Assembly: GCA_963805315.1 (NCBI GenBank)
Contig: CAWDTQ010000010.1
Location: 84,114 to 148,113 of the forward strand
DNA: 64,000 nt
From: an uncultured delta proteobacterium
Lineage (GTDB): Bacteria; Desulfobacterota; Binatia; Binatales; Binataceae
Direction of reading: 5' to 3'
Numbering within the stretch: position 1 is the first letter of the stretch; every line of letters starts with the position of its first letter. Of the stretch, positions 42,135 to 62,901 are shown in pieces. A model generated the notes under the pieces. The model was not told the origin of the DNA, did no database searches, and saw only the letters and a program-made list of their open reading frames with translations. The translations under genes were made by a program, and so were the position numbers.

Positions 42135-45100
42135 ATGACAATGTGGCGGGCCCCGCTTCGGGGCACGGTGGCGGTGTGGGCTGTGGTTGTCTGCGGCATG
42201 GTCCTGGCGGGACCGTCTTACGCCGCGGGGCCGTCGAAAATTCACGGAAACCATCCCGCGGATATCGCCAATCTTACTGCGATGCGGGCCGACGGCAGCG
42301 CGCCGCTCGAACTCAGCGTCGTGCTGGGCCTGCACAATCAGGCCGCGCTGGAGAAGTTGCTGGCCGCGCAGCAGGATCCAAACTCGCCCGAATACCATCA
42401 CTGGCTGAGCGCGGCGGAATTTAATGCGCGCTTCGGCCCGACCGCGGCGCAAATCGACGCGGTAAAGAACTGGCTCGCGGATGCGGGTTTCGTCGTCGCC
42501 AAAGTCGATGGCCGCTCGCGAACCATCACCGTCACGGGCAGCGTCGCGACCGCCGAGGCGGCCTTTGCCACCGAGATTGTCACCGACGGATCCAATTTCG
42601 GGAACACATCCGATCCGTCGGTGCCGGCCGAGCTGGACGGCTTGATCGCGGACATCCGCGGACTGGACAACATGCGCGCGCTCGCGCCCGCAGGGCTGCA
42701 TCAGACACTGTCAATTGCGCCCTCGACAGCTCATTCGCCGACCGAGCTGGTGCTCGCGCTGGCCGACGCGGCCGATCCGAACCCGTCCAACGAAAACGAA
42801 AGTGCACCGCCCGATCCGGGCGTCAAGTTTGGCGGATCGACGGCCTTCGGCCCGTTCGATATCGAGACGTTTTACGACGAGGCTCCGCTGATAACCGCGG
42901 GAGATAGCGGCACTGCGTCGCCCGATTGCGTCGCGCTGGCCGAGGACTCCGACTATCTCGATGCCGCACCGGCGTTGTTCGATTCGGATTTCGGCTTTCC
43001 CGCGATCAACCTCACTCGAGTGCTGCCCACCGGCACCTCGCCCGGCACCAATGCCAACGAGACCGAGGCGCAACTGGATATCGACTACGCGCACGCGACG
43101 GCGCCCGCGACGCCGATTCACGTTTACGTCAACTCGAACCTCGAAACCTCGATCTCTTCTGCCATTTCCGACAACATCTGCGGCGCGATAAGCATCAGCT
43201 TCATCTACTGCAGCTCGACGAATTCATTTTTTACCGGACTGGATACGTGGTTCTCGCAGGCGGCGGCGCAGGGACAATCGGTGTTCATAAGCTCGGGCGA
43301 TTGGGGCGCGGCCGGACTGCAATACGATTCGACCACCAACGCCTGCGTGACCGGCACGAGCAAGAATCCAAGCGAGATGGCGTCCAGTCCACACGTCACC
43401 GCGGTCGGCGGAACGCAGTTCTCGCCGCAATATAATAGTTCCGGCAACGACATCAGCGTGATTGGAGTGGCGCCAGGCGGAATCGAAACGGCGTGGGGCT
43501 CGAGTGGCGGGGGCGTCAGCAACATATTTTCGAAGCCGTCGTGGCAGACCGGCACCTTCAACGACAACATGCGCGACATTCCCGATATTTCGATGATCGC
43601 GTCGTCGCCCGGCGTCTTCATCGGCGCCGATTCGTCCGGCACCGCGATTATTCAGTGCTGCTGGGGCGGCACCAGCTTGTCGGCTCCGTTGTGGGCCGGC
43701 TTTACGCGGGTGATCGCGCGCAAAGAAGGCACCGCGCGCCTCGGTCTCGTCAATCCCACCACTTACGCGCTGGCCAACGCGGGCGCAGCCGCCAACGGGT
43801 TGATCGATGTGACCAGCGGCAACAACACCTTCAACGGCGTGACGGGTTATCCCGCCGGCGTCGGCTTCGATCTGGTCACCGGATGGGGCAGCCCCGACAT
43901 GACCAAGTTCGCCAACGCTTACGCAAGCGCGCCGCATCCCAGCCCGACACAGACACCGACCGCGACGGCGACTCCGACGCGCACGGCCACTAGCACAGCG
44001 ACTGCAACTGCAACGTCCACCGGGACTGCTACAGCCAGTCCAACGCCGACCATCACGGCGACTACGACAGCAACCTCGACGCGCACGCCGACTGCGACGG
44101 CGACAGCTACGTCCACCGCGACGCCGACCGCAACCGCGACAGCCACATCAACTGCAACGCCGACCGCCACCGCAACAGCAACCTCGACGCGGACGGCGAC
44201 GGCGACCGCCACATCAACTGCAACTGCGACCGCCACATCAACTGCAACGCCGACCACAACTGCCACGGCCAGCGCGACGAAGACTGCGACGGCGACGGCA
44301 ACCTCGACGCGGACGGCGACCGCAACATCAACTGCAACGCCGACCACGACTGCGACCGCCACTGCGACTCAGACGGCGACGGTGACCGCTACATCAACCG
44401 CAACGCCGACTGCCACAGCGACGACAACTGCCACGGCAACCTCGACCCGCACGGCGACTGCGACAGCGACCGCCACATCAACCGCAACCCCGACCACAAG
44501 CGCAACGTTGACTGCGACGGCTACGGCAACCTCGACGCGGACTGCGACTCAGACGGCGACGGCAACTGCCACATCAACTGCAACGCCGACTGCCACAGCG
44601 ACGACAACTGCCACGGCAACCTCGACCCGCACGGCGACTGCGACAGCGACCGCCACATCAACCGCAACCCCGACCACAAGCGCAACGACTGCCACGGCTA
44701 CGGCAACCTCGACGCGACGGCGACTCAGACGGCGACGGCAACTGCCACATCAACTGCAACGCCGACTGCCACAGCGACGACAACTGCCACGGCAACGACA
44801 ACCTCGACCCGCACGGCGACTGCGACAGCGACCGCCACAGCGACCGCAACGCCGACCACGACTGCAACCGCCACTGCGACTCAGACGGCGACGGTAACTG
44901 CCACATCAACCGCAACCCCGACCACAAGCGCAACGTTGACCGCGACGGCGACCTCGACGCTGACTGCGACGGCTACATCAACCGCAACGCAGACTGCCAC
45001 GGCAACGACAACTGCCACGGCGACGACAACCTCGACGCAGACTGCGACAGCGACCGCCACATCAACTGCAACGCAGACCGTCACCGCAACGCCGACCGCA

Positions 45101-46411
45101 ACCCCGACCACAAGCGCAACGACAACTGCCACAGCGACGACAACCTCGACGCAGACGGCGACGCAGACTGCGACAGCGACCGGAACATCAACCGCAACGC
45201 CGACCACAAGCGCAACGTTTACCGCGACCGCGACCTCGACGCAGACGGCGACCGACACATCAACCGCGACGCCGACTGCAACGCAAACTCAGACCGCCTC
45301 TGCCACGGCGACCTCTACTCCGACTGCGACCTCTACTCCGACGGCGACGCCAACCGTGACCGCAACGGCAAGTGCAACCGCAACCACAACGGCAACTCCA
45401 ACCGCGACAGCCACCGCGACGGCGACTACTACACCGACCGCAGCGCCGACTACTTCGATGTCGGTTACTTCTTCGCTCGGGTTCGGCAATGTGGCCGTAG
45501 GCCAGACTTCCGCCAAGACCGTGACGGTGTCTAACAAGGGCAGGAAACATCCGCTGATGGTCTCGAGCGCGACGATGTCGGATCCGGAATATGCTTTGAG
45601 CGGGAAAGGAACCTGCGGTGCGATTCCCGTGACGGTTGCACCGCGGAAGTCCTGCTCGCTTGGCCTCACATTCACGCCCGCTTCGCTCGGGTTGCACAGC
45701 GCTACGCTTGCGCTCAGCGACAACACCATGACCAGTGCGCAGCATGTGGCGCTCTCCGGCACCGGCATTGGCGGCTTGAGTACCTCGAGCACCAGCTCGG
45801 TGTTCGGGATTGTGACGTTCGGCTCGACGGCGGCGAACAGCCTCACGGTTACCAACAATCAGGCGCAGCCGGTGACGCTGAGCGAGAGTTTCAGCGGGAC
45901 CAACGCCGCCGACTTCTCGATTACCGGCGGCACCTGCCCCAACGCCCCGGCCACGCTTGCGGCCAAGACCTCGTGCAAGGTCACAGTGACCTTCAAGCCG
46001 GGTGCGCTGGGAGCAGAATCCGCGACGCTGTCGATGTCCGACACTCCCGATTCGCTGGGCCCTTACGACGTCGCACTAACTACTGGCGCGACCGTTCCGG
46101 CCGCCGTCACGCCGACGTCGATGCGCTACGGCACCGTCTCGCGCGCGTCGTCGAAGACGCTCTCCGCTACCGTCACGAACATGTCGCCATTCACGCTGTC
46201 GCTTGACAGTACTGTCGACGGCCTCAATGCGGGCGACTTCCCGATCACTGGCGGCACCTGCGGCTCGACGCTTGCGGGCAACTCGTCATGCACGGTCGCG
46301 GTAATGTTCAAACCGACCAAGAAGACGACCGAGAGCGCCACGCTGGCAGGCACGGTCAGCTCCGATCCGACCAGCCCGCATAAAGTCGCCCTCAAAGGCA
46401 AAGGCTCGTGA
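42135..46411 (+). CDS. Secreted S53 (sedolisin/kumamolisin) protease with ~500-aa Thr/Ala stalk and three Ig-like domains; frameshift ~44715
   Basis: Pro-domain (F...F.PT....DAVKNWL..AGF), EAQLDIDY, SSGDWG, GGTSLSAP, FDLVTGWGSP; ORFs 42135-44897 and 44936-46411. Confidence 0.85.
44364..44900 (+). repeat. Tandem ~180-bp units in the stalk
   Basis: gcgactcagacggcgacgg recurs at 44364, 44544, 44720 and 44876 (periods 180, 176, 156). Confidence 0.8.
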
Positions 46412-46464
46412 GCGAGGGCGGGACGTCGAAGCGGAAGTTGCAAGTTAATTCGGAGACGCGACAG

Positions 46465-48608
46465 TTAGCGGATTTCGTAAACTTTCGCTTCGTAGCCGTC
46501 AAACTGGTCTTCGAACGTCAGGCCATCCTTAATTTCAATTTTTTTCATTCCGCGGCGGACCGTAACCGATCGCGCGGGGGATTGCAGGACGAACCGGGCC
46601 GACGCCGTATCGATCCCTTGATTGTATGCAATCACATAACGGGTACCGTCCGCGCCGATTTTCTCGCGCGTGACGATGTCCTGAGATGGCTTGGCGCTCA
46701 GGACTTGCGCGTCGGGCCGCAGTAGCACCGGCTCGAGATCCTTGATCTCGTTGGTCACGCGGATCAGCGAACCCCAGAGCGCCGCCTTTTGCGCCGGATT
46801 CCGCACCCAGCCGAGCGCACGAATCCCATGCGACCAGTAGAAGACTCCGGTCGCGCCCTCCGCGATCGCCATCCAGCTCATATCGTGCAGTTGCTGCTCG
46901 GTTGGCCAGGAGGAGATGGCGTCCGCCTGGAAAAACTGGATGACCGTCCAGACCGGTCTGGAAGCATGGACCGCCTGCACCGCCATCCTGGTCCAATCGC
47001 CCACTTCACCAATGTAGTTGTCGGCCGGCAGCCACACCGGATAGGGATCAACGCCAAGGACATCCACCGAATCCTTCCAGAACGGCAGGTCAAGCGGATG
47101 GTCGAGCACCACCAAATTGAAACCCGAAGGATCGTTCGCTTTGATCAGCGAATATTGATGAAACGTTTGGCGGCTGCGCGGTGATCGCGGGCTCGTCCTG
47201 AACGTAGTATCCCACCACGCCGGGGTCGGACGCTGAGAGGTGGAGACGTAGTCGGAAATCAGCCGATCCGGATCGTCGGTGCCAAACTGGTCGGCGATAG
47301 GCTTTCGGGAAGCTGCGTTGCCCTTGTAGAAATCGCTGACGGCGGGCAGAAACGAAGATCCCAAATTGCTTCATCGCCGCGGTGTACGCGGTGACCGCGC
47401 TGTCGGCGCGTTGGTGATGAAAGTAGTTGATGATCATGTTGATCGGCGCTTGCGCGATCGCGCCGAGCTCCTTCTCGTATGTGAGCCGCGCAAGATAGGA
47501 CCAGTCCGGTCGTGTCGTAGATTCCGAGCACGAAGTGAGGGTTGCCGTCGATGAAATGTGCGCGGTTGCGATCGTCGATCCACGCCTTCAGAAAGTCCCC
47601 AGGCTCCGAATCAACCTTCACGACCCGGTACGGCGGCTGCTCGAACAGAACCTTTCCGCCTGTGCTGAGAAGCTTTCCGCGCACCTGGTAAACGCCGGCT
47701 GGCAGTTGGCTGAAGTCCAGGGTCGCCGTGAAATCATCGGCGGGTGACTTGTAGGTGTGGTCGGTTTTTGTTCCTGAGTCGGTGCGCATCGCCTCGAACT
47801 GAAAGACGAGATCTTCGCGGCGCAGGTCGGGGCCGCGATTGAGCGTCACTGCCGCGCGCACTTCCTGAGGCGCGTCGGCAAAGAGGTATCCGCGATAGTT
47901 CGGATAGAGCATGAACGATGGTGAAGAGCGGCGCGATTTCCTCTCGCACGTACATGTTGGCGAACCACGCCGAGCCGGATGTTCTGCCGTCGACTGCGAG
48001 CCGAAATGGGGAGCGGGTGCCGGGCGCGACGACGCAGTGCCTGCTGTCGAACTTTTGCCAATCGCCGGCGCCGTTTCCGAAATCTGTCTCGCAGCGCGGT
48101 GAACAAATCCATTCCCGTTCCGGCGACCAGCTTCTCTTTCGGCAGATCCGAGAGTTTTAATTTCACCGCCAATCGAATAAACGCCGGGCGGGGCCACGAA
48201 CTCGTTTACCGCCTGCTTCGTGAACGGCCCGCATGAGTCGGGGTTCTCTATCTTCAGGCTTGGATTTCCGTTGGGAGCGCGAGTTGACGAGTCCGGCCGG
48301 AAACATCGCCGCCGAAACACGCCAGCCATCCAAGCCCGCTGCGAGAAGTCGCCATTGACGAGCAGGTTCTCGCCCAAAGTCCATCCGGTTTCGGAAGCTT
48401 CAAGGCCGCCTGCCGGAATGTTCGTGCTCTTGCGCTGGCTGGGGCTCTTGGAATCAGGCGATGCTTCTTGTGCGGGATACTGTGCGCGCCGCTCGTTGGA
48501 TGCTTTGAGCGCCGAGTCGGTGCCCGACGAACATCCCCCTGTCAGCAGCGATGATGCAAATATGCCGACTCCGGCGACGCGAAAGATGCCGCGCTTGCGC
48601 CAGTGCAT
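46465..48608 (-). CDS. Probable lipoprotein with carbohydrate-binding-like and glycoside-hydrolase-like domains; several frameshifts
   Basis: LLTGGC lipobox-like, ENLLVNGDFS, GYYVQDEP, DVLGVDPYP, MAIAEGATGVFYW spread over several frames. Confidence 0.55.
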
Positions 48609-48701
48609 CGGCGACTATTCCTCTGCGACCAAATGTTGGTCTCGGTTGTTTCCGAAGGTCGACGGCAGAAGGTTCTATTACTGGGGTTCCTTAGGAAATC
48701 A

Positions 48702-49484
48702 TTATTCGTGCCGGACAAAACTGACGCACTGGCCTTGATTCTTGAAGCAAGCGAATTGTCGCCAGCCGCCATTTTTGCACTGATCGACTGAAGTCGGCGC
48801 CGAGGAGCACGTCGGCGTGGGTTGTGGGGTCGGGAATTTTCGTTTGTGGCTCTCTGGTTCCCCTTCGCCCGCCACCGTCCCTGTCGTTCCCTGCGCAACC
48901 TCGACGCCGCGGTCGGGCGCCGATGCCTGCGCCAGGTTGACAGTGCCATCGATCACGGCAACCTCGGTGTAGTGAGAGACTCCAGGAAGGTTGCCGGTTT
49001 GGGGCGAGCTTCCGCTGTAAGAGGTGTAAAAGGCCGTGCCGCGCGCGGTCACGATCGCGTTGGGCGTGCGCACCTGAAAGTTTGCCGGAGCTCCAGCGGT
49101 CTTCTTCACCGCCGATTTCAATATTCCGGAAGCGAGTCCGACCCGCGTCGGCGTGGCGCCGCCACTGGTGTACTGGTCGAGCGCGATGGTGGTCGAAGGG
49201 CTGAGTTCAAGCTGGCTCCCGTCGCTCAGGATTATTACGGCGACCCCTTCCGCGCCGGAACCAATCTTGTCGCCCCGGTAAACCGGTGCGCCCGGTGCGG
49301 CCGCCAGGACGCCGCCGCCGCGCTGTATCTGCACCCCTCCGCTTGCACTGGAGATTGTCCCGGCAGCGCTCTGCGCTCGGGCCGTACCTGCGCCGACGAT
49401 CGCGCAGGCGGCAATGAGAAACACCCCCGCGCGAACTAGCCGATCATGACGGTGAGGGTTTGACCGCACAGGACAGTACTTCAC
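48702..49484 (-). CDS. Exported FecR-domain protein
   Basis: Signal peptide; GDKI.SG..G...I.LSDGSQL.L...T, FQVRTPNA..TARGT.F, VAVIDGTV. Confidence 0.8.
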   Translation of the reverse strand: MKYCPVRSNPHRHDRLVRAGVFLIAACAIVGAGTARAQSAAGTISSASGGVQIQRGGGVLAAAPGAPVYRGDKIGSGAEGVAVIILSDGSQLELSPSTTIALDQYTSGGATPTRVGLASGILKSAVKKTAGAPANFQVRTPNAIVTARGTAFYTSYSGSSPQTGNLPGVSHYTEVAVIDGTVNLAQASAPDRGVEVAQGTTGTVAGEGEPESHKRKFPTPQPTPTCSSAPTSVDQCKNGGWRQFACFKNQGQCVSFVRHE

Positions 49485-49702
49485 TCCGGGACTTCCGTTT
49501 TGACTCTCTCAGTCTTCTCCGATCAATCGATTCACACGCCCCAGCCAAGTTACCGATAGCCCAACTCTATCCTCCGCCGCAAGGGTCAGGTCTCTTCCTT
49601 CGTCTTGCATAGAACTGGCGCACGGTACTGCTTCGCGAGTGCCTCCTATGATAGTTGGGACGGTATGGGTGACGATCCGGCCTATGCGGGGCTTCGCGGC
49701 GA

Positions 49703-51160
49703 TTGCTGATGGGTTCCGGGCGAAATTTTCGGCGGGTTGCGATAATCGGCGGAGGTATTAGCGGACTCGCCGCCGCATACCGCTTGCGCGAACTCACGGC
49801 GGCGCGTGAATTTCCGCTCGAAGTCTCGCTGTTCGAAAAGGGACCCGACCTCGGCCGCGCGCTCGCGACCGTTCGCGAAGACGGCTTTGTCATCGAGACC
49901 GGCGCCGATTCGTTTCTCTCCGAGAAGCCGTGGGCGCTCGATCTCGCAAAACGGCTCGGCCTCGAGCACGAGCTGATCAGAACCGACGAGCGCTTCCGCA
50001 AGACCTACGTCGTGCGCGCCGGGCGGCTGGTGGAAATTCCGGAAGGGTTCAGCCTGCTCGCGCCCACCAGGTTCCTTCCGATCGTGACGAGCCCACTGTT
50101 CAGCATCCGCGGCAAGCTGCGCATGGGGCTCGAACCGCTGATGCCGGTGCGGCGCGATGCGAGCGATGAAAGCCTGGCCGCGTTCGTCACCCGCCGGCTC
50201 GGCCGCGAAGTGCTGGATCGCGTCGCGCAGCCGCTGGCCGGCGGAATCTATACCGCCGATCCCGAGTCGCTGAGCCTGATGGCCACGATGCCGCGGTTCA
50301 TCGAGATGGAACGCCGCTACGGCAGCCTTTACAAAGGGCTCAGGGCGACGAGCCGCAGCATCCCCGTCCAGTCCAAAGGCACAAGCGGCGCGCGATGGAG
50401 CCTGTTTCTGAGCTTTCGCGGCGGGATTCGCGCGCTCGTGGACGCGCTCGCTGCCCGGCTCGGCGAGTGCGTTCGCATGCGCACCGCGGTCACGACGCTT
50501 GCACGTCCCGGCGGCGACAGCGACAGCGGCGGATGGCGCATCGAGATGGCCGACGGCGCGCGGTTCGATGCGGACGCGGTGATCGTCGCGACGCCGGCCT
50601 ACGACGCGGCGCGCCTGCTGATGCCGCACGACGCGGAACTCGCCGGCCTGCTTGGCGAGATCCGGTATTCTTCCGCCGCGTCGGTCAACCTCGCCTATCG
50701 CGCGGCGGATATTCCACGCCTGCCCGAGAGCTTCGGCTTCGTCGTGCCGGTCAAGGAGCGCCGCAAGATCATCGCCTGCACATTCTCGAGCGTGAAGTTC
50801 GCCCATCGCGCGCCGGATGGAACCGTGCTGATGCGCACGTTTCTCGGCGGCGCATTGCAATCTGAGATGATGGCGCTGGAGGACACCGCGCTGGTTGCCG
50901 CGGCGCGCGAGGAAATCGCCGCGTTGCTAGGCGTCAGGGCCGAACCGATCCTGACTCGTGTCCAGCGATGGCCCCAGCAGATGCCGCAGTACTCGCTCGG
51001 CCATCTCGACCGCGTCGCTCGGATCGAGCGCCTCGCGTCCACACTCCCCGGCCTGGCGCTGGCCGGCGCAGCATATCGCGGCGTGGGCATCCCGGATTGC
51101 GTGCACAGTGGCGAGCAGGCGGCAGAGGCCGTGCTCGACTATCTGCAGCGCGGAACATAG
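49703..51160 (+). CDS. hemG: Protoporphyrinogen/coproporphyrinogen oxidase (HemY-type)
   Basis: IIGGGISGLAAA, IETGADSFL, PLAGGIY..D...LSL.ATMP, PQYSLGH, AYRGVGIPDCV. Confidence 0.9.
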   Translation: MLMGSGRNFRRVAIIGGGISGLAAAYRLRELTAAREFPLEVSLFEKGPDLGRALATVREDGFVIETGADSFLSEKPWALDLAKRLGLEHELIRTDERFRKTYVVRAGRLVEIPEGFSLLAPTRFLPIVTSPLFSIRGKLRMGLEPLMPVRRDASDESLAAFVTRRLGREVLDRVAQPLAGGIYTADPESLSLMATMPRFIEMERRYGSLYKGLRATSRSIPVQSKGTSGARWSLFLSFRGGIRALVDALAARLGECVRMRTAVTTLARPGGDSDSGGWRIEMADGARFDADAVIVATPAYDAARLLMPHDAELAGLLGEIRYSSAASVNLAYRAADIPRLPESFGFVVPVKERRKIIACTFSSVKFAHRAPDGTVLMRTFLGGALQSEMMALEDTALVAAAREEIAALLGVRAEPILTRVQRWPQQMPQYSLGHLDRVARIERLASTLPGLALAGAAYRGVGIPDCVHSGEQAAEAVLDYLQRGT

Positions 51161-51483
51161 TCGCGTCCAGTGACGCCGCTGGCTGGCGGCGGTCGCGGTG
51201 CGTGGCTCTGCAAGCCGCGTAGAGCGCATCGATGGCGCCGCAGCGAGCCAGCTCCTTAAGACGAACCACGTTACCTGATATAAGCACAGCTAAACTAAGC
51301 CAAATCGAGATTCCCGATCCGCGAACGATTTGGTCCTGACACGGCAGGATTGGCTGCACTAGCTTTATGCACGCCGAGGTAAGATACTCGACTGCACAGA
51401 CTGCTTGCCAATTTTACGTTGATGGGTAACAATTCCCGCCCTACGTTTTGTAGCATCCGCACCGCATAGATGGAGGTAGCGCC

Positions 51484-52803
51484 ATGAAATTCACATTGAG
51501 AGCCAAGGTCGCATCACTAACGCTGGCATTTCTATTCGCCGGTTGGGCCAGCGCACATGCGGGCGTCATACCCAATGGCACCGTGATGGTCGGAACCGGG
51601 AATGGCTTTGTCACCGAATTCGATCAGAACGGAAATATGCTGGGGCAACTGGACACGACGACCGGTTCCAATGAAGAGACCGGGGGAGCATTTGATTCGA
51701 CCGGTAACTTTTTTGTCACCGACTTTCAGGCAAATATGGTGACGAAATTCGATCCGAGCGGGACATTGATCGGCGCCTTCGGCAGTGGCTACAACAATCC
51801 GGAATCCATCGTTTTCGATGCGAGCGGAAATGTTTATGTGGGTAATGCGGGTCCTGATGCCCCAGGTGGAGCCCGGCCCGTTCTCGAGTTCAATCCCTCC
51901 GGCGCCCTTCTGAATACATTTCTTCCGGCCGTGGAGAGTAGGGGTACCGATTGGGTCGATTTGGCTGCCGACAATTGTACGCTCTTCTATACCTCGGAAG
52001 GCACACTCGTGAAGCGCTACAATCTCTGCACTAACACGCAGTTGGCTGACTTCAACGCGACACCCCTTCCCGGCGACGAGGCGTTTGCGCACCGGATCCT
52101 GCTTCCATTTCAGTTTGGAGCCGGCGGCGTGCTGGTCGCGGACACTGAAACGGTGCAGCGCCTGGACGCGTCAGGCAATGTAGTCCAGACTTACACGTTC
52201 CCTGGCTTCACTGATCTCTTCGCGCTGAATCTGGATCCCGACACCACCTCCTTCTGGACGGCCGATGGAAATTCGGGTCAGGTATTCAAGGTGGACATCC
52301 AGACCGGTACGGTGTTGCAGAGTTGGAGCTCCGCCGGCGCGCCCAATTTCGTGGATGTAGGAGGACTCGTCGTCAAAGGGGAGCTCACCGCTCCCGTGCC
52401 TGGGACGACGCCGCCGGTCTGCGGCGTGGCCACTGCCAGCGCACCCCAGCTGTGGCCGCCCAATCACAAATTCGTCTCTGAAACAGTTGAGGGCGTGACC
52501 TCGGTCAATGGACCGGTCACTATCGACATCACCGGCATCTTTCAGGATCAATCGCCGACGGTCAAAGGCAGCGGACACACTTGCCCCGATGGCAAGGGCG
52601 TTGGGACTTCGACTGCGATGGTTCGCGCCGAACGAGCCGGCGGGATTGACGATGGCCGAGTTTACCATATCGACTTCACGGCCACCGACCAGACGGGCCA
52701 AACCTGTACGGGCGATGTGACGGTCTGTGTGCCTCACGATCAGGGGAAGGATAAGACCTGTGTGGATCACGGACCGCTGTTCGATTCGACAGTGTGCCCG
52801 TAA
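51484..52803 (+). CDS. Secreted beta-propeller protein with C-terminal LWPPNHK-type domain (paralog A)
   Basis: ggagg RBS, signal peptide, propeller blades, LWPPNHK...RAERAGG..DGRVYHI...VCVPHD. Confidence 0.75.
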   Translation: MKFTLRAKVASLTLAFLFAGWASAHAGVIPNGTVMVGTGNGFVTEFDQNGNMLGQLDTTTGSNEETGGAFDSTGNFFVTDFQANMVTKFDPSGTLIGAFGSGYNNPESIVFDASGNVYVGNAGPDAPGGARPVLEFNPSGALLNTFLPAVESRGTDWVDLAADNCTLFYTSEGTLVKRYNLCTNTQLADFNATPLPGDEAFAHRILLPFQFGAGGVLVADTETVQRLDASGNVVQTYTFPGFTDLFALNLDPDTTSFWTADGNSGQVFKVDIQTGTVLQSWSSAGAPNFVDVGGLVVKGELTAPVPGTTPPVCGVATASAPQLWPPNHKFVSETVEGVTSVNGPVTIDITGIFQDQSPTVKGSGHTCPDGKGVGTSTAMVRAERAGGIDDGRVYHIDFTATDQTGQTCTGDVTVCVPHDQGKDKTCVDHGPLFDSTVCP

Positions 52804-52812
52804 CTGCATTTT

Positions 52813-52843
52813 GCGCGAAGCGCGGGGCCCTCAACGGGCCCTG
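52813..52843 (+). terminator. GC hairpin after paralog A, repeated after paralog B (~54357-54388)
   Basis: gcggggccctcaacgggccctgc within a duplicated 3' flank; no U-run. Confidence 0.45.
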
Positions 52844-53030
52844 CGTACTTCCGCGAATTGAGATTCCCAGAAATGATCGGTTCTGACACGGCCGGATTGG
52901 CTGCACCAGTTTATACACGGAGAGGTAACATACTTGAGTGCATAAACTGCTTGACTAATTTTACGTTGAGGGTAACAATCCCCGGCCCTACGTTCTGTAG
53001 CATCGGCACCGCGTACATGGAGGTAGCGCC

Positions 53031-54347
53031 ATGAGATTCACATTGAGAGCCAAGGTCGCATCACTAACGCTGGCATTTCTATTTGCCTGTTGGGCCAGCG
53101 CACATGCGGGCGTCATAGCCAATGGCACCGTGCTGGTCGGGACCGGGAATGGCTTTGTCACCGAATTCGATCAGACTGGAGCGATGCTGGGGCAACTGAA
53201 CACAATGACCGGCGCCCCAGGCGATGAGCAGACCGGAGGAGCATTTGATTCGAGCGGTAACTATTTTGTCACCGACTTTGAGGAAAATATGGTGACGAAA
53301 TTCGATCCAACCGGGGCTCTGATCGGATCCTTCGGCAGTGGCTACAACAATCCGGAATCCATCGTTTTCGATGCGAGCGGAAATGCTTATGTGGGTAATG
53401 CGGGTCCTGCTGTACCAGGTGGAGCCCGCCCCGTTCTCGAGTTCAATTCCTCCGGAACCCTTCTGAATACATTTCTTCCGGCCGTGGAGAGTAGGGGTAC
53501 CGATTGGGTCGATTTGGCTGCCGACAATTGTACGCTCTTCTATACCTCGGAAGGCACACACGTGAAGCGCTTCAATGTCTGCACCAACACGCAGTTGACC
53601 GACTTCAACGCGACACCCCTCCCGGGCACCAACGCATTTGCGCACCGAGTCCTGCTTCCATTTCAGTTTGGAGCCGGCGGCGTGTTGGTCGCGGACAATG
53701 CGACGGTGGAGCGCCTGGACGCGTCAGGCAATGACGTCCAGACCTACACGTTCCCTGGCTTCGTTAACCTCTTCGCGCTGAATCTGGATCCCGACGGCAC
53801 CTCGTTCTGGACGGCCGATTCAGCTTCAGGTCAAGTATTCAAGGTGAACATCCAGACCGGCGCGGTGTTGCAGAATTGGAGCTCCGCCGGCGCGCCCAAT
53901 TTCGTGGATGCAGCTGGACTCACCGTCAAGGGCGAGCTCACCGCTCCTCTGCCTCCGCCGGATTGCAGCATGGCCGCTGCCAGCGCACCCCGGCTGTGGC
54001 CGCCCAATCACAAATTTGTCTCTGAAAAAGTTGACGGCGTGACCGCGGTCAATGGACCGGTAACCATCGACATCACCGGCATCTTTCAGGATCAATCGCC
54101 GACGGTCAAAGGCAGCGGACACACTTGCCCCGATGGCAAGGGTGTCGGGACTTCCACGGCTATGGTTCGCGCCGAACGAGCCGGCGGGATTGACGATGGC
54201 CGAGTTTACCATATCGACTTCACGGCCACCGACCAGAAAGGCCAAACCTGTACGGGCGATGTGACGGTCTGTGTGCCTCACGATCAGGGGAAGGATAAGA
54301 CCTGCGTAGATCACGGACCGCTGTTCGATTCGACAGTGTGCCCGTAA
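53031..54347 (+). CDS. Tandem paralog B of 51484-52803
   Basis: Same leader, signal peptide and nearly identical C-terminal domain. Confidence 0.75.
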   Translation: MRFTLRAKVASLTLAFLFACWASAHAGVIANGTVLVGTGNGFVTEFDQTGAMLGQLNTMTGAPGDEQTGGAFDSSGNYFVTDFEENMVTKFDPTGALIGSFGSGYNNPESIVFDASGNAYVGNAGPAVPGGARPVLEFNSSGTLLNTFLPAVESRGTDWVDLAADNCTLFYTSEGTHVKRFNVCTNTQLTDFNATPLPGTNAFAHRVLLPFQFGAGGVLVADNATVERLDASGNDVQTYTFPGFVNLFALNLDPDGTSFWTADSASGQVFKVNIQTGAVLQNWSSAGAPNFVDAAGLTVKGELTAPLPPPDCSMAAASAPRLWPPNHKFVSEKVDGVTAVNGPVTIDITGIFQDQSPTVKGSGHTCPDGKGVGTSTAMVRAERAGGIDDGRVYHIDFTATDQKGQTCTGDVTVCVPHDQGKDKTCVDHGPLFDSTVCP

Positions 54348-54423
54348 CTGCATTTTGCGCGAAGCGCGGGGCCCTCAACGGGGCCCTGCGTACTTCCGCG
54401 CAGCCATTCGCGTCATAGAGGAG

Positions 54424-54541
54424 TTTCCCGGGCGTGGCGGGCGCCGCATATCGCGGCGTGGGCATCGCCGATTGCGTGCACAGCGGCGAGCAGGCCGCAG
54501 AGGTGTCCTCGACTACCCGCAGCGCGGAAGATAATCGCGTC
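54424..54541 (+). pseudogene. Degenerate copy of the hemG 3' end
   Basis: gcatatcgcggcgtgggcatc..gattgcgtgcacag.ggcgagcaggc.gcagagg matches 51044-51167. Confidence 0.85.
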
Positions 54542-54585
54542 GCGATCCGGACCGAACTTCTCCTGAAAGACGAGCGCCGACCTCT

Positions 54586-57327
54586 CTACTTCACTGCGTA
54601 AAATTTCACCCCGTTCCCGTTGTCGCAGACGAAGGAGGTCGAAAGACCCGTGCAAGTGCCGGCGGGCAGCGCCGTGGATATCGCAGAGGGGTTGCTCTGC
54701 AGGGTGGCGAGATTGATCTGCACCAGGAAGTCGTCGGCACTGTTCAACACATAGCCGAGATTGTTCGTCACATCGACGATGGTCGCGTATGGGATACCCT
54801 GCGCCGAGAACGGGCTGGCAGCGGGAGTGTTTGGAATCGAAGAATGCGCCAAGGCCGTGACGTTGGCCGAGGTCAACTGAGTAAGCGTCGAAGTCGGCAA
54901 ACCCAGAAGTGCGATCGATGGACCATGGTACTCAGTTAGAAAGGCCTGATGGGTGATAGGGTTGACCGTGACTGAAGGCATATTGGTGCCGGTTCCGGTG
55001 TCGATATTCACCGAATTGGGCGGAGTGCCACCTTCGTTGAGTGTGCAAGGTGAGACCATCTCGTCGAAGGTCGCGCCGTTCAAATTGATCACGGTTGCGC
55101 TCGGCGAATTGAAATTCCCGATCACGGCGAGATGGGTCGTGGGATCGTATCCGGCAGTGTCAGGGTCAGCGGCAAGGGTGTTGACACTGCCGTCGGAGAT
55201 TATGCACCCGCCGGAATTGGCGAGATCGATCGCATTCATCCCTACCCCCGTTCCAACACCCGGGTCCAACGTATCCGATGGCGCGATTATCGTCCCGCTG
55301 AATGCGTCCAGCCCAAATGCGTCCGGCAGCGCCGCCTGGATTACGGGGCTGTACAGCTGGGTCGACAGGTTAAACGACGCAAACCCGGTACAGGTACCCG
55401 CAGTCGGACAAGTGGCGGCGTCTCCAGTCGACACGATCGCAGTATTGTTCATCGCATCGTAAAGAACCTGCCCAACAGCGCCGCCGCTTGTGATCCCGGT
55501 GACCTCCGAGTCGGCTCCTGTGGGAAACGCAAAAGGTGAACCGCTCTTCAAACTGAGAGTGTTCTCATCGATGAGATCGAGAAAGCCGCCATTGCCGGAC
55601 AAACCGCTGCTCACCATGACCAGATGGCCGGTCGGGTTAACGGCGACGCCCCCCGGTAGGTCGGCATGACCGAGATCGATGATCGTCACTCGGGGGTCAC
55701 TCTGATCAGGATCAACGCCGACGTTGATCACTGCGACCTGACCGTGGCCGGCCGTGTTAAACGTCGGCAGGGCTACGAAGGCAAGGTGTGCTGTCGGATC
55801 GACCGCAAAAACACTCGAATTGGTCGAAATCTGAGGAACTGACGGCGTCGGGGTCGCAGTCGCGGTTGCGGTCGATGTGGCCGTCGCCGTTGCGGTCCGG
55901 GTCGCAGTTGCGGTCGCTGTCGATGTGGCCGTCGCCGTTGCAGTTGCAGTCCGGGTCGCGGTTGCGGTCGATGTGGCCGTTGCGGTCCGGGTCGCAGTTG
56001 CGCTCGCCGTCGCCGTCGTGGTTGCCGTCGCGGTTGCAGTTGCCGTCGAAGTCGCGGTCGGCGTGGCGGTCGCAGTCTTGGTTGCTGTGGCGGTCGGACT
56101 CGCGGTCGCGGTGGCCGTCTGTGTAACCGTCGCGCTCGCTGTGGCTGTAGCCGTCGCGGTCGCTGTCGCCGTCCTGGTCGCCGTCGCGGTTGGACTCGTG
56201 GTCGAGGTCGCTGTCGAAGTTGGCGTGACGGTCGCCGTTGCTGTAGGCGTCGAAGTCGCGGTGTTGGTTGTGGTCGCCGTGGCTGTAGCCGTCGCGGTCG
56301 CCGTCGCAGTCCTAGTCGCCGTCGCGGTTGAACTCGTGGTCGAGGTCGCCGTCGAAGTCGCAGTGCTGGTTGTGGTCGCCGTGGGCGTAGCCGTCGACGT
56401 CGCAGTCCTGGTCGCCGTGGCCGTTGGACTCGTGGTCGAGGTCGCGGTCGAAGTCGGGGTGGCGGTCGCAGTCCTGGTTGCGGTGGCGGTGGCCGTCTGC
56501 GTGACGGTTGCGCTCGCGGTTGCCGTAGCCGTCGACGTCGCTGTCCTGGTTGCCGTCGCAGTTGGACTCGTGGACGAAGTCGCCGTCGAGGTTGGCGTCA
56601 CGGTGGCAGTCGCCGTTGGCGTCGGCGTCGCAGTGTTGGTTGTGGTCGCCGTGGGCGTTGCTGTCGACGTCGCAGTCCTGGTCGATGTCGCGGTACTGGT
56701 CGCCGTCGCTGTTGGACTCGTGGACGAGGTCGCCGTCGACGTTGGCGTGACGGTGGCAGTTGCCGTTGCGGTCGCCGTCTTGCTCGTAGTCGCGGTCGCC
56801 GTCGCGGTGGTGGTCGGCGTCGATGTCGTGGTCGCAGTTGCGCTCGACGTCGGCGTCGATGTCGCAGTCGCGGTGGGCGTCGGCGTCGCACCCACACCCG
56901 TACAGCTCAGACCGACTGTCTGCGTCTGTTGGTTGCGGGGTCCGACGGTGAAGATGAACGTGAGCGTCCCGGTTACAGTCCCGGTCGCCGTCGGCTGGCA
57001 CTCGACGTTAATTTGACACGACTGCGCGCCGCCCAGTGAGCTGTCGCAAGTGTCACCAACCTTTAGGAATGGTGATGAAGCGGCGATGCTCGCAAGATCG
57101 ATCGTGGCTTTTTTGGAGCTGTTAGAGACCAGCACCGTTTGCGGCGCGCTAGCCGTCCCCGCGTCCACATTACCGAAGTTAAGGCTCTTGGGACTGAACT
57201 TCAGGTGCGCGTTTCCTGCGAATTGCGCGAAGGCTGGTGCAGGTGCGGCCAATCCGATCGCAAGAAGAAATGCGACCGTCAGAACCGAAAATCCAGCGAT
57301 GTACGAATCCGGACGCGACATGCACAC
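54586..57327 (-). CDS. Secreted protein: N-terminal Ig-like domain, ~345-aa Thr/Ala stalk, C-terminal YVTN-like propeller
   Basis: Signal peptide; FSPKSLNFGNV..G..S...TV.VSN; stalk 55845-56895; blades AVDPTAHLAFVA, AVNPTGHLVMV, VTVNPITHQAFL. Confidence 0.75.
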   Translation of the reverse strand: MCMSRPDSYIAGFSVLTVAFLLAIGLAAPAPAFAQFAGNAHLKFSPKSLNFGNVDAGTASAPQTVLVSNSSKKATIDLASIAASSPFLKVGDTCDSSLGGAQSCQINVECQPTATGTVTGTLTFIFTVGPRNQQTQTVGLSCTGVGATPTPTATATSTPTSSATATTTSTPTTTATATATTSKTATATATATVTPTSTATSSTSPTATATSTATSTRTATSTATPTATTTNTATPTPTATATVTPTSTATSSTSPTATATRTATSTATATASATVTQTATATATRTATATPTSTATSTTSPTATATRTATSTATPTATTTSTATSTATSTTSSTATATRTATATATATATATTTNTATSTPTATATVTPTSTATSTTSPTATATRTATATATATATASATVTQTATATASPTATATKTATATPTATSTATATATATTTATASATATRTATATSTATATRTATATATATSTATATATRTATATATSTATATATPTPSVPQISTNSSVFAVDPTAHLAFVALPTFNTAGHGQVAVINVGVDPDQSDPRVTIIDLGHADLPGGVAVNPTGHLVMVSSGLSGNGGFLDLIDENTLSLKSGSPFAFPTGADSEVTGITSGGAVGQVLYDAMNNTAIVSTGDAATCPTAGTCTGFASFNLSTQLYSPVIQAALPDAFGLDAFSGTIIAPSDTLDPGVGTGVGMNAIDLANSGGCIISDGSVNTLAADPDTAGYDPTTHLAVIGNFNSPSATVINLNGATFDEMVSPCTLNEGGTPPNSVNIDTGTGTNMPSVTVNPITHQAFLTEYHGPSIALLGLPTSTLTQLTSANVTALAHSSIPNTPAASPFSAQGIPYATIVDVTNNLGYVLNSADDFLVQINLATLQSNPSAISTALPAGTCTGLSTSFVCDNGNGVKFYAVK

Positions 57328-58285
57328 CCCCCTGACGAACAGGGCCTGAACGAACGTCTTCTAAAGCACCCACCATCACCTTCCCGCCCAAACAAATTTG
57401 CCAATTGGTGTCAGAATGGGAACAAGCCCAGCTAGGCTCAAATCCCGATACGTAACCGTAATATGGCTTAGCATCTGGACGGGTTTGCTGCAAATGGAAA
57501 ATTCGAGGCGCCCGGGTTGTGCTTTTTGAACGAATTCGCGGGTTTCGGCGGTCACACGGCACTGACTGTCACGCCGGTCCGTGCTCCCGTCCCCAGCCAC
57601 AGGAAGAAAACGAAATAGTGAGAGTCGCAGCATATTGCTGAACCGATCGATCCGTCTGACGGTGGTGGTCAATGCGGCTGCCACGAGCATGATCGCAAGA
57701 ATAATTCATATCCACGACGCGGCGGTCGAGGCTCCCAGGACCCGACGCATCATCGGGATCCAGGCATGACAGACAGTTGATGTGTGCCGACACTTGGTAG
57801 AGACAACAGGCACGGGGCAGGCGAGCGTTGCATGATGCGGCCGATTTATGCCTGTGGAAAATCAGCGAATTCCTTTTAGCGACCATTCCCATGCGTCAAT
57901 GTACGGACCCAACTTACCATGGGACCATTTGTGTTTAATGATTTTTATTTGACTCACCGCACGTCGTTAAAAATTTGACTTAGTCTTGGACGAGGGTGAT
58001 TGTGTTTGCGAACGAAAGCAAGTTTACTGGCTGCGGGAGGAACGCTGACGGTGAGCCGCGTCAGTTGCCGGCAGTCAGCGATCGTCCGTGTGGTGGTGGA
58101 GGAGATAGGGCGCGTTACGAATCCGCCCGAAGTCAAAAGCGGGCACTTGCACTAACGCTGGGAGGGGATCATGAAGCATTGTGTTTTCTTATGCAGCGGC
58201 GGTTATCTCCGTGTTGATGCGTCTCTAGTTGTAAAGTGACAGCAGTGTTGCTGCCCACACGGACACATAGAGGAAGGAGTCCATC

Positions 58286-58630
58286 GTGAAAATTCTGAGT
58301 TCCCGAAGTGGACGGGTTTTGTTGAGCGCCGCGACGATCTTCGCCGTGGTCGCGGTAGGCATGCAGCGGGGTCAGATTGTGCTGGCCGTGGCGTCCGCCC
58401 AGACCCCGAACGATAGCAATAGCAACCTCAATGCTCAGAAAGAGGAACAACTCCGCAAACTTCAAGAGAAGGAGTTCATCCGCGAGCATTCGGATGCTTC
58501 CGGAAAGCTGCGGCCGGACCTTTGGCGCAATGGGATAGAGCAGCAGAAGAAGATGCAGGTCGCACCCTACATCGGCTGGCATCCACCGTCCGAGAGCGCA
58601 GCAAAGTCGTCGCCCGCCGCCACCAAGTAG
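58286..58630 (+). CDS. Small exported protein resembling a pro-region
   Basis: aaggag RBS before GTG; signal peptide; EFIREHSDASGKLRPDLWRNGIEQQKKM. Confidence 0.6.
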   Translation: MKILSSRSGRVLLSAATIFAVVAVGMQRGQIVLAVASAQTPNDSNSNLNAQKEEQLRKLQEKEFIREHSDASGKLRPDLWRNGIEQQKKMQVAPYIGWHPPSESAAKSSPAATK

Positions 58631-58701
58631 CGGTGAGCTAGTCACTCGTACTCTCTTCGGGGGAAGGGCGTGGTTCTGCCGATTTCTGGGAGGACAAAAT
58701 A

Positions 58702-61700: not shown

Positions 61701-62742
61701 GGATCAACAACCTCGGCCCTTGCAACCTACATGTGAACGGGTTTCCGATGACGCAGATCGTCTGTCCCATTACAGTCAACAATCCAAGCGGTCTGCCCCA
61801 ATTCACTCTGGTTAACCCGCTTGAGTTCCCCGCGAACATCAGTGCGGACTCGGGCCTTGACGTCGGCATCAACTTCACGCCGACACAAGCGGGAGTACAG
61901 ACATGCACTCTCGAAATCTCAAGCGACGATCCGACCGTTATTGGCACACAAATATAACTCTGACTGGGGGTACGCCGCTCGGTTCGTCTGAGGTGAAGGT
62001 GACGGTGCCGCCGGGATTAACCTTCCCGCCGACCGTCATTCAGCAGAATGCGGCGTGTTCCTCGACGGTGGGTGTGCCGATCACCAACGCAGGCGCGTGT
62101 CCGGTAAACTTCCCGGCGCAGCCACCGAGCCCGGGTGGAGACGTCGACATCCTTACCCAATCCAGTACCAACCCTCCGGGCTTCGACTATATGCTGACCG
62201 GAGTCCCCGGATTGACCAGCCCGACGCTGGGGGGACCGGTCGCGCAGATACTCGAACCGGGCGGTCAACTTGGTGCGGGAGATCTGAATCTGGTCTTCGC
62301 GCCGTTCCAGATAAGGCGTCAGAGCACGGGTACAGTGACCGTCCAGTTCGAAGACGATCCGATCCTTCACACTATCGCTACCGATCTTGTGCCGGTCTGT
62401 GGCGAGGCCGTCCAGCGCGGGCTGCGCGTGCTGGTAACTCGTGGTGGAGTTGCGGTACCGGTGGTGACGAAAATCGAGCTGCAGACCACGTTCGCACCGC
62501 ACCAGCCCTTTACCCATCAGACCATCCAGAACGCGCTGTTGAGGACCATATCCGGCACACCGCCCTGCGCGTCGTTCCAGTACCACGCGGAATTTGGCGG
62601 CAACACCAATTCCGCACAGCTCAAACCCGGAGTGTATCGCCTGAAGGTCTGGCTCAAGGTCGGCAAGAAAACCTTGACGTCGATCGTCCGAGTCAACCTC
62701 GACCAGTGCACCTTCAACCAGAATGTCATAGTGGCGTTCTGA
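58702..62742 (+). CDS. Secreted BNR/Vps10-like beta-propeller protein with Ig-like domains; frameshifts ~59130 and ~61950
   Basis: WNQIGPAP, Asp-boxes (SQDGGTTW, STDSGATW, TTDGGLTW), LRAGTFGRSAF, then FGTLCPG...IFNVGTSDL.I repeats. Confidence 0.8.
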
Positions 62743-62757
62743 TCGTGTAAAAACGCC

Positions 62758-62790
62758 GGGGCGGCCGCGAGTTTAACCTCGCGGCCGCCC
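62758..62790. terminator. Hairpin between convergent genes
   Basis: gggcggccgcgag-tttaac-ctcgcggccgccc; T-run follows on the minus strand. Confidence 0.7.
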
Positions 62791-62901
62791 TGAAAGCTCA
62801 CGCCGCAAACTCCTCTGCGGCAGGCGTTCTATCAAGGTTTCCGCGCTCGTCATTCAGGATAAGGTTTTGAGCGGCTGCGCAGCGCTGCTCGATTTGAGCG
62901 C

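Follow-up and report, generated by a model that had tools for sequence, protein, structure and literature searches.

A repeated hemY tail on both sides of an insertion in the genome of a soil Binataceae bacterium

Prophages and genomic islands that settle at the ends of genes are typically flanked by an imperfect repeat of the last ~100–165 bp of the target, and the displaced tail persists beyond the insert as a pseudogene fragment. In Escherichia coli, e14 and phage 21 reportedly insert at the 3′ end of icd and supply a replacement end for the gene. In animal mitochondrial genomes, changes in gene order are explained by tandem duplication followed by random loss of the superfluous copies. For the arrays of T6SS effectors and for Rhs loci, a homology-anchored displacement that leaves orphaned 3′ ends behind has been suggested (PMC5361080). 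Finally, integration by one-sided homology, either as a Campbell-type single crossover of a recircularised fragment or as homology-facilitated illegitimate recombination (HFIR), has been described in Acinetobacter, S. pneumoniae, P. stutzeri and E. coli; in the last of these, most integrants obtained with one-sided-homology substrates are single crossovers of recircularised molecules, in which a homologous segment of 109–950 bp is duplicated (PMC3240628).

The locus described here lies on a 261-kb contig of a metagenome-assembled genome (87.7% complete, 3.5% contamination) of an uncultured soil Binataceae bacterium, from which a stretch of 64,000 nucleotides, hereafter the window, was analysed. 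When positions 50500–55000 are compared with themselves by BLASTN, the 3′ end of hemY (R) is found again 3.3 kb downstream (R′), 51052–51167 matching 54428–54541 with 87.1% identity over 116 columns (E 5.5e-34), far above chance; the longest identical run spans 21 nt (GCATATCGCGGCGTGGGCATC) and the right limit of the repeat falls 7 nt past the hemY stop. The initial annotation had placed this recurrence at 51044–51167 and, in degenerate form, at 54424–54541, within a few bases of these limits. The same comparison reveals a second repeat between R and R′, in which 51332–52855 corresponds to 52879–54400 (90.5% over 1533 nt) and which by eye extends to the limits of the two units listed in Table 1, a head-to-tail tandem duplication with a single novel junction.

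Table 1. Features of the hemY locus, with positions in the window and the short designations used in the text.
Feature	Position	Strand	Description	Evidence
hemY	49703..51160	+	FAD-dependent protoporphyrinogen/coproporphyrinogen oxidase, 485 aa, intact	PF01593, TIGR00562, dN/dS
R	51052..51167	+	Working hemY 3′ end: last 108 nt plus 7 nt past the stop; C-terminal FAD-binding motif AGAAYRGVGIPDC	self-BLASTN
a	51168..51302	+	Left flank of the insert; from 51276 onward homologous to U-gene upstream regions in L103; imperfect palindrome ~51179–51252	
Tandem unit 1	51303..52855	+	Promoter-like region, gene U1, GC-rich hairpin 52825–52841	
U1	51484..52803	+	Signal peptide, NHL/SGL six-bladed propeller, Cys-rich C-terminal domain	
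Tandem unit 2	52856..54400	+	Same module as unit 1, with gene U2 (53031–54347)	
c	54401..54433	+	Native downstream flank of the U module, common to L103 U_a; terminal CCCGGGC alignable to L103 or to hemY	
R′	54428..54541	+	Displaced, decaying original hemY 3′ end; frameshift, P-to-A, L-to-P, T-to-R	self-BLASTN; joined to native downstream flank
d	54542..54585	+	Native sequence 3′ of hemY	88% to L150, 96% to L149 (first 27 nt), 76% to L103
913-aa gene	54586..57327	−	Secreted protein with Thr/Ala-rich linker, convergent with hemY; last 48 codons also 3′ of hemY in L103	
z	62712..62794	+	Last ~10 codons and terminator hairpin of a 279-aa gene (61903–62742); directly 3′ of U_a and c in L103	L103 2811–2892, 88%

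The gene carrying the repeated tail had been named hemG. Flavodoxin-like HemG is a protein of ~180 aa, and the only Pfam domains found in the present product are FAD/NAD Rossmann-type oxidase domains, a composition to which the name does not apply. The protein matches PF01593 (1.1e-63) and scores 311.9 bits against TIGR00562, above the cut-off of 97.85, and with this FAD amine-oxidase fold it is a HemY-type FAD protoporphyrinogen oxidase, an essential enzyme of haem synthesis. Its dN/dS in comparison with relatives is 0.16–0.20, and it appears to be the only HemY-type protoporphyrinogen oxidase of the genome, in a search scoped to the HemY type as distinct from HemG and HemJ.

The two copies of the tail have had different fates. 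In R, every private change relative to the close relatives is synonymous. R′ has undergone a 1-nt deletion causing the frameshift, together with non-synonymous changes, and it retains a stop at the same place (TAA; TAG in R); its private changes amount to a neutral change of ~5–8%. R stays under purifying selection and completes the enzyme; R′ is decaying. An apparent bias of the R/R′ differences to synonymous positions, which might have indicated selection in two lineages, was discarded when polarisation with outgroups placed the bulk of the changes on the R′ branch, the frameshift and the non-synonymous substitutions among them.

Close relatives of this locus were found in three metagenome contigs from related Binataceae populations, namely L103 (JGI sample 3300043654), L149 (3300079385) and L150 (3300048088), of which L103 is a 3.6-kb contig assembled from short reads and possibly a chimera. 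In L150 (2142–2300 = window 54428–54584) the end of hemY runs directly into d, and the same empty site is found in L149 (1963–2095 = window 54431–54561); in L103, positions 594–893 correspond to window 54431–54729 and continue from the hemY end to the 3′ end of the gene at 54586. The expectation of the initial annotation that some relatives would have hemY joined directly to this gene is thus borne out by L103, with L149 and L150 showing the join to d, and a plain tandem duplication of hemY and its neighbour, which it had named as evidence against an insertion, was found in none of the relatives. Because hemY and d are contiguous in all three contigs, R′ followed by d is the native end of hemY, and the junctions of R with a and of c with R′ are novel. 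These comparisons show that the block flanked by the repeats was inserted and that the distal repeat represents the original 3′ end, now displaced.

An assembly artefact, with strain variants stitched in tandem, might be suspected in a MAG of this completeness and contamination at a locus that is polymorphic among populations. Nevertheless, R′ is frameshifted and 13% diverged, and does not resemble an allele; the long contig has clean junctions; and two tandem U copies next to hemY are also present in L103, an independent JGI contig. We regard this explanation as scarcely credible.

The block, described initially as holding only two secreted-protein genes, consists of one gene module, tandemly duplicated, whose product is a secreted NHL beta-propeller. 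In L103 the order is hemY, d, 144 nt of the 913-aa gene, a stretch called y, and U, the last lying ~350 bp further downstream than in the window and with different junctions; there the U module (copies U_a and U_b, the latter directly after z, the terminator of the 279-aa gene) stands in place of window 54730–62711 (~8 kb), and no target is duplicated. The right end c nearly coincides in the two arrangements, within about 10–13 nt (window 54395–54433 = L103 2764–2802, 87%, with the motif CAGCCATTCGCGTCAT...GGAGTTTC), and the left ends differ. The leftmost part of a, 51168–51275, resembles y weakly in a local alignment (p ~0.016, as good a score being obtained in 16 of 1000 shuffles) and forms a weak hairpin (fold z = −1.7), and it has no other match in the genome or in any fetched locus.

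Considered broadly, the locus is read here as the scar of non-site-specific recombination or replication in a hypervariable locus, an island of genes for secreted proteins, with a probability of about 0.85. The specific route that we favour, tentatively and at somewhat less than an even chance, is an insertion anchored by one-sided homology, by way of a Campbell-type crossover or of a homologous plus an illegitimate join. In the lineage of this genome hemY originally ended in R′ and d, facing the 913-aa gene, and a piece of ~1.7 kb consisting of a, U and c (one secreted NHL-propeller gene accompanied by a promoter region and a terminator of its own) was later joined into the 3′ end of hemY, whose tail of ~112–116 nt now stands on both sides. 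The incoming DNA would already have consisted of a hemY tail fused to a, U and c, and the donor was probably a related population with U adjoining hemY, nearly as in L103. It could have entered as a recircularised fragment by a single Campbell-type crossover or, alternatively, by a homologous crossover in hemY combined with an illegitimate join at the CCCGG/GGC shared by the end of c and hemY (51047–51058); both routes would duplicate the homologous segment. This shared sequence may represent microhomology at the junction of c and R′, short and ambiguous in alignment owing to a small deletion. HemY stayed whole because the insertion duplicated its last ~115 bases. Since the gene apparently encodes the sole HemY-type oxidase, and the duplicated stretch encodes the C-terminal FAD-binding motif, products of recombination that lacked a complete gene could not have persisted.

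The resemblance to the Campbell/HFIR systems consists in foreign DNA placed beside a homologous anchor, with no dedicated recombinase needed, and in the duplication that flanks the insert, which with ~116 bp lies inside the 109–950 bp range reported for E. coli (PMC3240628). Classical HFIR, in contrast, usually pairs the insertion with a deletion, and the hemY case is deduced from sequence. The initial annotation had offered homologous recombination of a circle as a fallback for a block devoid of an integrase, and this part of it agrees with the experimental outcome of one-sided homology (PMC3240628). The locus also recalls the Rhs and T6SS arrays, in which new DNA arrives behind a conserved gene part and the old 3′ end is pushed downstream as an orphan; unlike these, where the new tail changes function and creates diversity, hemY is a housekeeping enzyme rather than a polymorphic toxin, it has received the same tail again, and the cargo is a separate gene.

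Several observations weigh against the favoured route. The near-coincidence of the c end in the window and in L103 could mean a defined module end. The postulated donor, with a and U beginning 7 nt after the hemY stop, was found in no contig, the nearest arrangement being that of L103 with d, the remnant of the 913-aa gene and y between hemY and U; in a metagenome scan with hemY, the close matches were contigs ending inside or just past the gene. R is not demonstrably imported, because substitutions confined to this genome are distributed uniformly over hemY and the gene shows no mosaic breakpoint. Lastly, the possible microhomology is short and ambiguous, and the left junction, with 51168–51275 of uncertain origin beside it, does not lend itself to scoring.

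The suggestion that the repeats are att-like recalls an element, or the stump of a decayed island, targeting the 3′ end of hemY with a replacement tail, its recombinase being encoded elsewhere or lost. Direct repeats of the target 3′ end just past the stop, a restored gene with its old tail displaced, empty sites in relatives and a block whose right end nearly coincides in the window and L103 speak for such an element, and the suggestion holds as regards the insertion and the displacement of the original tail. As with e14 and phage 21, a gene-tail repeat flanks the insert and the gene is intact; those elements, however, have an integrase beside an att site and are found there again in many strains, whereas the hemY insert shows no integrase and no recurrence and its cargo stands at another junction in a sister population. 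Several tyrosine recombinases are encoded elsewhere in the genome, but all matches to PF00589 lie outside the window, the nearest being a pseudogene (C10:62325) ~71 kb away, and no recombinase domain was detected with Pfam in 15 proteins encoded by the main ORFs of the 39.8–64 kb interval; neither the block nor its vicinity contains a recombinase gene. tRNA and Rfam scans near the locus were both empty. Furthermore, no second hemY tail occurs within about 9–10 kb of hemY in any of the 46 hemY loci whose 3′ end is complete, the site is not occupied in them, and the other cargo that the initial annotation proposed to look for is absent within 10 kb of hemY in these 46 relatives; the integrases that it thought might adjoin the gene were not encountered either, nothing integrase-like being found in 95 other hemY loci totalling 1.1 Mb, in a tblastn search of limited sensitivity with five recombinases of this genome. 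In L103 the module lies elsewhere, has another left end and replaces 8 kb rather than duplicating a target. The R copy shares the lineage-private divergence of hemY, so it does not look element-borne, and the cargo is one ordinary chromosomal gene with orthologues in a conserved locus elsewhere. A site-specific element is thus considered improbable.

Even further down the scale is a variant in which the U module and its short conserved right end c form a non-autonomous cassette, moved between the 3′ ends of Binataceae genes by an unlinked recombinase that rebuilds the target tail each time, with the hemY site and the L103 site beside the tail remnant of the 279-aa gene as two landing sites; we hold it to be highly improbable. 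An integron gene cassette finds no support, the window containing no tyrosine recombinase and the module closing in a plain GC-rich hairpin of the terminator type. Recombination between paralogous C-terminal modules was also set aside, since the 913-aa, 279-aa and U proteins each carry a tail that is unique in the genome.

A rival explanation is a large tandem duplication with reciprocal loss. In this scheme, a stretch that began inside the 3′ end of hemY and closed with a U module, at that time situated beyond the 913-aa gene and its neighbours, was duplicated, the first copy lost d, the 913-aa gene and what follows, and the second copy lost U, leaving the order hemY, R, a, U, c, R′, d and the 913-aa gene. 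Like the duplication and random loss of mitochondrial genomes, this would explain an apparent translocation with a partial gene copy at its boundary. The position of U_b in L103, right after z, makes an ancestral U to the right of the 279-aa gene plausible, and an upstream segment of ~95 nt, retained by U_a and by the outgroup L154, is missing from U1, U2 and U_b alike; tandem gene duplicates are common throughout this genome, and the apparent ages of the two repeats are similar (~5–8% neutral change in R′; dS 0.154 between U1 and U2, with dN/dS 0.44, thus dS/2 = 0.077). On the other hand, a duplication of >11 kb and at least two or three clean deletions are needed, several extra steps for which no intermediate was found; no U remnant is present to the right of 62794, and past the hairpin the window and L103 are no longer homologous; 51168–51275 finds no match in the sequence that precedes U_b in L103; and the right breakpoint would nearly coincide with the older L103 junction in c. 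This course of events is unlikely. A version with one large duplication in an ancestor shared by this genome and L103 is disfavoured, since the private changes of R′ (~5–8%) fall short of the neutral divergence that separates the window from L103 (24% in d).

Within one genome, a template switch in replication or unequal end-joining would require synthesis to leave hemY 7 nt past the stop for a U module elsewhere in the locus, to copy it, possibly twice, and to re-enter hemY ~112 nt upstream of the point of exit, so that a single event makes both the R duplication and the tandem U. The novel junctions (51167/51168, 52855/52856 and ~54433/54434) all lie in one 3.3-kb block, R/R′ and U1/U2 are about equally old, a short microhomology is possible between c and R′, and the U module stands mere hundreds of bases from hemY in L103. 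Yet the copied original is gone from the genome, therefore an extra deletion is needed, and the microhomologies have too few bases for scoring. The sequences that precede U1 and U2, moreover, are just 77% alike, more diverged than the coding parts and no closer to each other than either is to the L103 copies, unlike the product of a single recent copying event. Such an origin is unlikely.

With regard to the favoured insertion by one-sided homology, a donor in a related population finds some echo in the alleles of the locus. The 3′ part of R′ and d are nearly identical to the L149 allele (three shared states; 26/27 nt in d) and R is L103/L150-like, a sharing that rests on 3–4 sites; R is 94.5% identical to L103 and the 3′ 700 nt of hemY 90.2%, and the dS of U between the window and L103 (0.19) is below that of hemY (0.275). 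These values give hints of exchange between populations. The stronger proposal that R is demonstrably foreign was dropped, with no breakpoint visible in hemY and the private divergence of R the same as that of the rest of the gene.

The surroundings of hemY are fluid in this Binataceae locus. Its neighbours differ in nearly every relative, and among GTDB species representatives synteny is limited to hemY itself, the nearest genomes (81–83% HemY protein identity) having other neighbours. Window 46512–49627 is missing from L149 and L150, the more distant U orthologues (67–72%) occur in a quite different, conserved locus, and the best homologue of the 913-aa gene (66%) in an unrelated one. In this clean natural case a housekeeping gene has come through an insertion in its own coding end because that end was duplicated in the process, and the locus indicates that an att-like gene-tail repeat can arise without an integrase, a caution for island-finding methods that use such repeats; beyond the fluidity of the hemY locus, this is ordinary genome plasticity. 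In the same region, hemY is uncoupled from its radical-SAM neighbour, and genes for secreted propeller proteins are shuffled and duplicated around it.

The gene to the left of the block had been named hemG in the initial annotation; since it matches PF01593 and scores above the cut-off of TIGR00562, the equivalog model for protoporphyrinogen oxidase, the encoded oxidase is of the HemY type and not flavodoxin-like HemG, and the gene is referred to here as hemY. Self-comparison of 50500-55000 returned two significant direct repeats (see the table), and the claim that a repeated gene tail flanks a two-gene block was confirmed. The working copy of the tail, R, covers the final 108 nt of hemY, within which the C-terminal FAD-binding motif is encoded, plus the stop codon and a further 7 nt; its displaced counterpart, R', differs from it by a 1-nt deletion and several amino-acid-changing differences, and the in-register stop codon is kept. 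The window corresponds to C10:84114-148113 of a metagenome-assembled genome (4.25 Mb, 16 contigs) that belongs to Binataceae according to the records of its relatives; a misassembly is considered highly improbable.

GTDB species representatives share with the window hemY alone, at ≤83% amino-acid identity. Much closer populations were found by protein look-ups in metagenome assemblies, and three of their contigs (L150, L149 and L103) join hemY directly to d, the 44 nt that follow R' in the window, the direct junction expected of relatives in which the site is empty; the check for such relatives proposed in the initial annotation therefore had a positive outcome. These comparisons show that R' is the native end of hemY and that the block between R and R' is an insertion; as hemY and d are contiguous in the relatives, the novel junctions are those of R with the left flank of the insert (51167|51168) and of its right flank with R' (~54433|54434).

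Coordinates of the features discussed (window positions unless a contig or locus is named)
Feature	Position	Strand	Evidence or remark
hemY, 485-aa FAD oxidase	49703-51160	+	PF01593 1.1e-63; TIGR00562 311.9 bits (cut-off 97.85)
R = R', direct repeat	51052-51167 = 54428-54541		87.1% over 116 columns, E 5.5e-34 (self-comparison)
Tandem repeat	51332-52855 = 52879-54400		90.5% over 1533 nt (self-comparison)
Tandem units 1 and 2	51303-52855; 52856-54400		Extents from reading the junction
U1 gene	51484-52803
U2 gene	53031-54347
913-aa gene, convergent, 44 nt (d) after R'	54586-57327	-
ORFs over 46512-49627	46465-47364; 47259-48608; 48702-49484 (FecR-like)	-
L150 (JGI 3300048088), hemY 93% nt to window	L150 2142-2300 = 54428-54584		hemY end to d directly, then unrelated genes
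L149 (JGI 3300079385), hemY 91% nt to window	L149 1963-2095 = 54431-54561		hemY end to d directly, then unrelated genes
L103 (JGI 3300043654), hemY 90% nt to window	L103 594-893 = 54431-54729		85.5%; hemY end to d and last 144 nt of 913-aa gene
Examples of tandem duplicates elsewhere in the genome	C15:49969-53094; C15:145359-148665; C10:170932-173191; C1:75875-78112; C7:127581-130013

Each tandem unit of the insert consists of a promoter-like region, one gene and a GC-rich hairpin. The gene, U, encodes a protein in which a Sec-type signal peptide is combined with an NHL/SGL six-bladed propeller and a Cys-rich C-terminal domain (~130 aa); among solved structures, the best relatives of the propeller are the sensor domain of PknD and the "Pizza" proteins, whose design started from that domain. 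The original insert, prior to the tandem duplication, was ~1.7 kb long and had one gene: it was formed by the left flank (a, 51168-51302), U and the downstream flank (c, 54401-54433). The G+C content of U is 57.8% versus 67.3% in hemY (GC3 65% versus 81%), and U resembles other nearby accessory genes in this respect. Just past the hemY stop, inside the part of flank a (51168-51275) that is of uncertain origin, lies an imperfect GC-rich palindrome (51179-51252), which folds weakly better than shuffles (z = -1.7) and has no second copy elsewhere in the genome.

The initial annotation had interpreted the block as a mobile element with an att site, inserted so as to restore the end of the gene; this is partly supported, as the restoring insertion is borne out by the contiguity of hemY and d in the three relatives, but the evidence does not favour a mobile element with an att site. 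No recombinase domain was detected by Pfam in 15 proteins from the major ORFs of 39.8-64 kb; PF00589 is absent from the window and occurs in 9 places genome-wide, the nearest being a pseudogene ~71 kb from hemY; and neither tRNA genes nor Rfam families were found nearby. Of 46 hemY loci that include the whole 3' end, examined over as much as 10 kb downstream, none had a second copy of the gene's own tail, and recombinase-like sequence turned up in 0 of 95 hemY loci (1.1 Mb), in a tblastn search of limited sensitivity with five of this genome's recombinases. Moreover, the private substitutions of this genome occur at an even density along hemY, R included (~2.3 per 100 nt), and no mosaic boundary is visible within the gene; R therefore does not resemble an element-borne surrogate tail. 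A site-specific system acting in trans is accordingly regarded as very unlikely.

Downstream of what is left of the 913-aa gene, L103 has, in this order, 160 nt (y), a first U copy (U_a), c, z and a second copy (U_b) that runs off the contig. U_a (81% amino-acid identity) is 90.4% identical in nucleotides to window unit 2, and z (L103 2811-2892 = window 62712-62794, 88%) corresponds to the last ~10 codons and terminator of the 279-aa gene of the window. In window coordinates, the U module of L103 replaces 54730-62711, whereas the window has U between R and R'; the right ends of c nearly coincide in the two (to within ~10-13 nt), but the left ends differ. The regions upstream of the four U copies are all ~75-79% alike, a ~95-nt upstream segment is kept in U_a and the outgroup L154 and is missing from U1, U2 and U_b, and the coding parts are closer within each genome than between genomes; these patterns therefore indicate a reticulate history. 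More distant orthologues (67-72%; L104 8938-10287, L105 857-2206, L159 10001-11347) lie in a conserved neighbourhood, where U comes after the gene of a luciferase-like oxidoreductase and is followed by convergent genes for 740-760-aa and DUF3142 proteins; this neighbourhood is absent from this genome and is probably the older home of U. In L153 a U homologue has yet other flanks, and homology ends exactly at the terminator hairpin.

Compared with L149, L150 and L103, R carries 4 private changes, all synonymous, and R' ~5-6, including a frameshift, P-to-A and L-to-P. The dS values of hemY between the window and L150, L149 and L103 are 0.19, 0.26 and 0.28, respectively, and those of U are 0.15 (U1-U2) and 0.19 (U2-U_a). 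The duplications of R and of U1/U2 are therefore of similar, considerable age; both took place on this lineage's terminal branch, and neither is recent. For hemY, dN/dS is 0.16-0.20; for U it is 0.33-0.49. In the tandem paralogues, which evolve fast, it is 0.44 (U1/U2) and ~0.97 in the first 146 codons of U_a versus U_b (L103 1392-2714 versus 3216-3653), compared with 0.17 for hemY, which suggests that selection on the propeller is relaxed or diversifying.

The structure could have arisen if an entering molecule carrying a copy of R had integrated by a Campbell-type single crossover, which would leave R-insert-R' with R' on the native flank, or by a homologous crossover in hemY combined with illegitimate joining at a point upstream of where the homology ends. 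The DNA would come from a relative with U already beside the hemY end, an arrangement that was not observed. In Escherichia coli, substrates with one-sided homology mostly integrated after recircularisation, duplicating 109-950 bp of the homologous segment (PMC3240628), a range in which the ~116-bp duplication falls; for T6SS effector arrays and Rhs loci, displacement that is anchored by homology and orphans 3' ends has been put forward (PMC5361080). Three weak hints point to possible exchange with an L103-like population: R is L103/L150-like while R' and d are L149-like (R' shares a G, AGA and TAA with L149 only; identity to L149 is 96% over the first 27 nt of d, compared with 88% to L150, over a match of 50 nt, and 76% to L103); R matches L103 at 94.5%, the remainder of the hemY 3' part at 90.2%; and the window and L103 diverge less in U than in hemY. 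Structure, precedent and hints together favour a homology-anchored insertion of a relative's DNA in which U already adjoined the hemY end (probability about 0.45). A large tandem duplication with reciprocal losses would fit L103, where U_b lies on the right of z, but this route calls for several additional events, no remnant of it is left, and it is considered unlikely; template switching or unequal end-joining within one genome is rather improbable. That the scar belongs to the non-site-specific class comprising these three routes is highly probable. The insertion at hemY adds a new case to a known kind of event, and its main value is one of caution: gene-tail repeats around an insert do not alone indicate an integrase.

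Instability extends over the whole locus. Relatives at 81-87% identity (L070, L073, L151, L152) have hemY immediately after a radical-SAM gene (~390 aa) that in this genome is on another contig (C7:607981-609165, in the region C7:601929-609165); in L073 the block of both genes sits between two genes that are 76 bp apart here (C2:69336-69412). Within the clade, hemY has been uncoupled from the radical-SAM gene and has moved. On the opposite side of hemY, ~3.1 kb with three genes (46512-49627) are missing from L149 and L150, the two closest contigs, in which hemY abuts a homologue of the Ig-like gene at 44936-46411; this is a second insertion/deletion polymorphism. Genes are commonly duplicated in tandem in this genome, whose self-comparison revealed many head-to-tail gene duplicates (76-84% identical, gaps <30 nt), and duplication of hemY occurs within the family, because a related genome (G063, the source of L077) has two full-length copies (C10:487732-489111 and C10:702378-703764; 72% and 70% nt to the window gene).

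The genes around hemY encode secreted proteins, namely a kumamolisin-like protease, Ig-like ASH/Cep192-domain proteins and propellers. The 3' part of the Ig-like gene (45817-46511) has a close paralogous copy at 3858-4462, both matching L149/L150 at 84-87%. A 915-aa ORF (59210-61957; BNR/sortilin-like propeller and Ig-like domains) overlaps the 279-aa ORF (61903-62742) by 55 nt on the same strand, and the two may represent a single gene, interrupted by a frameshift or by an assembly error. Finally, long Thr/Ala/Ser/Pro low-complexity linkers at 55800-57000, within the 913-aa gene, and at 44000-45450 have weak DNA matches, dozens in number and lying on both strands, across related genomes and can mislead similarity searches.
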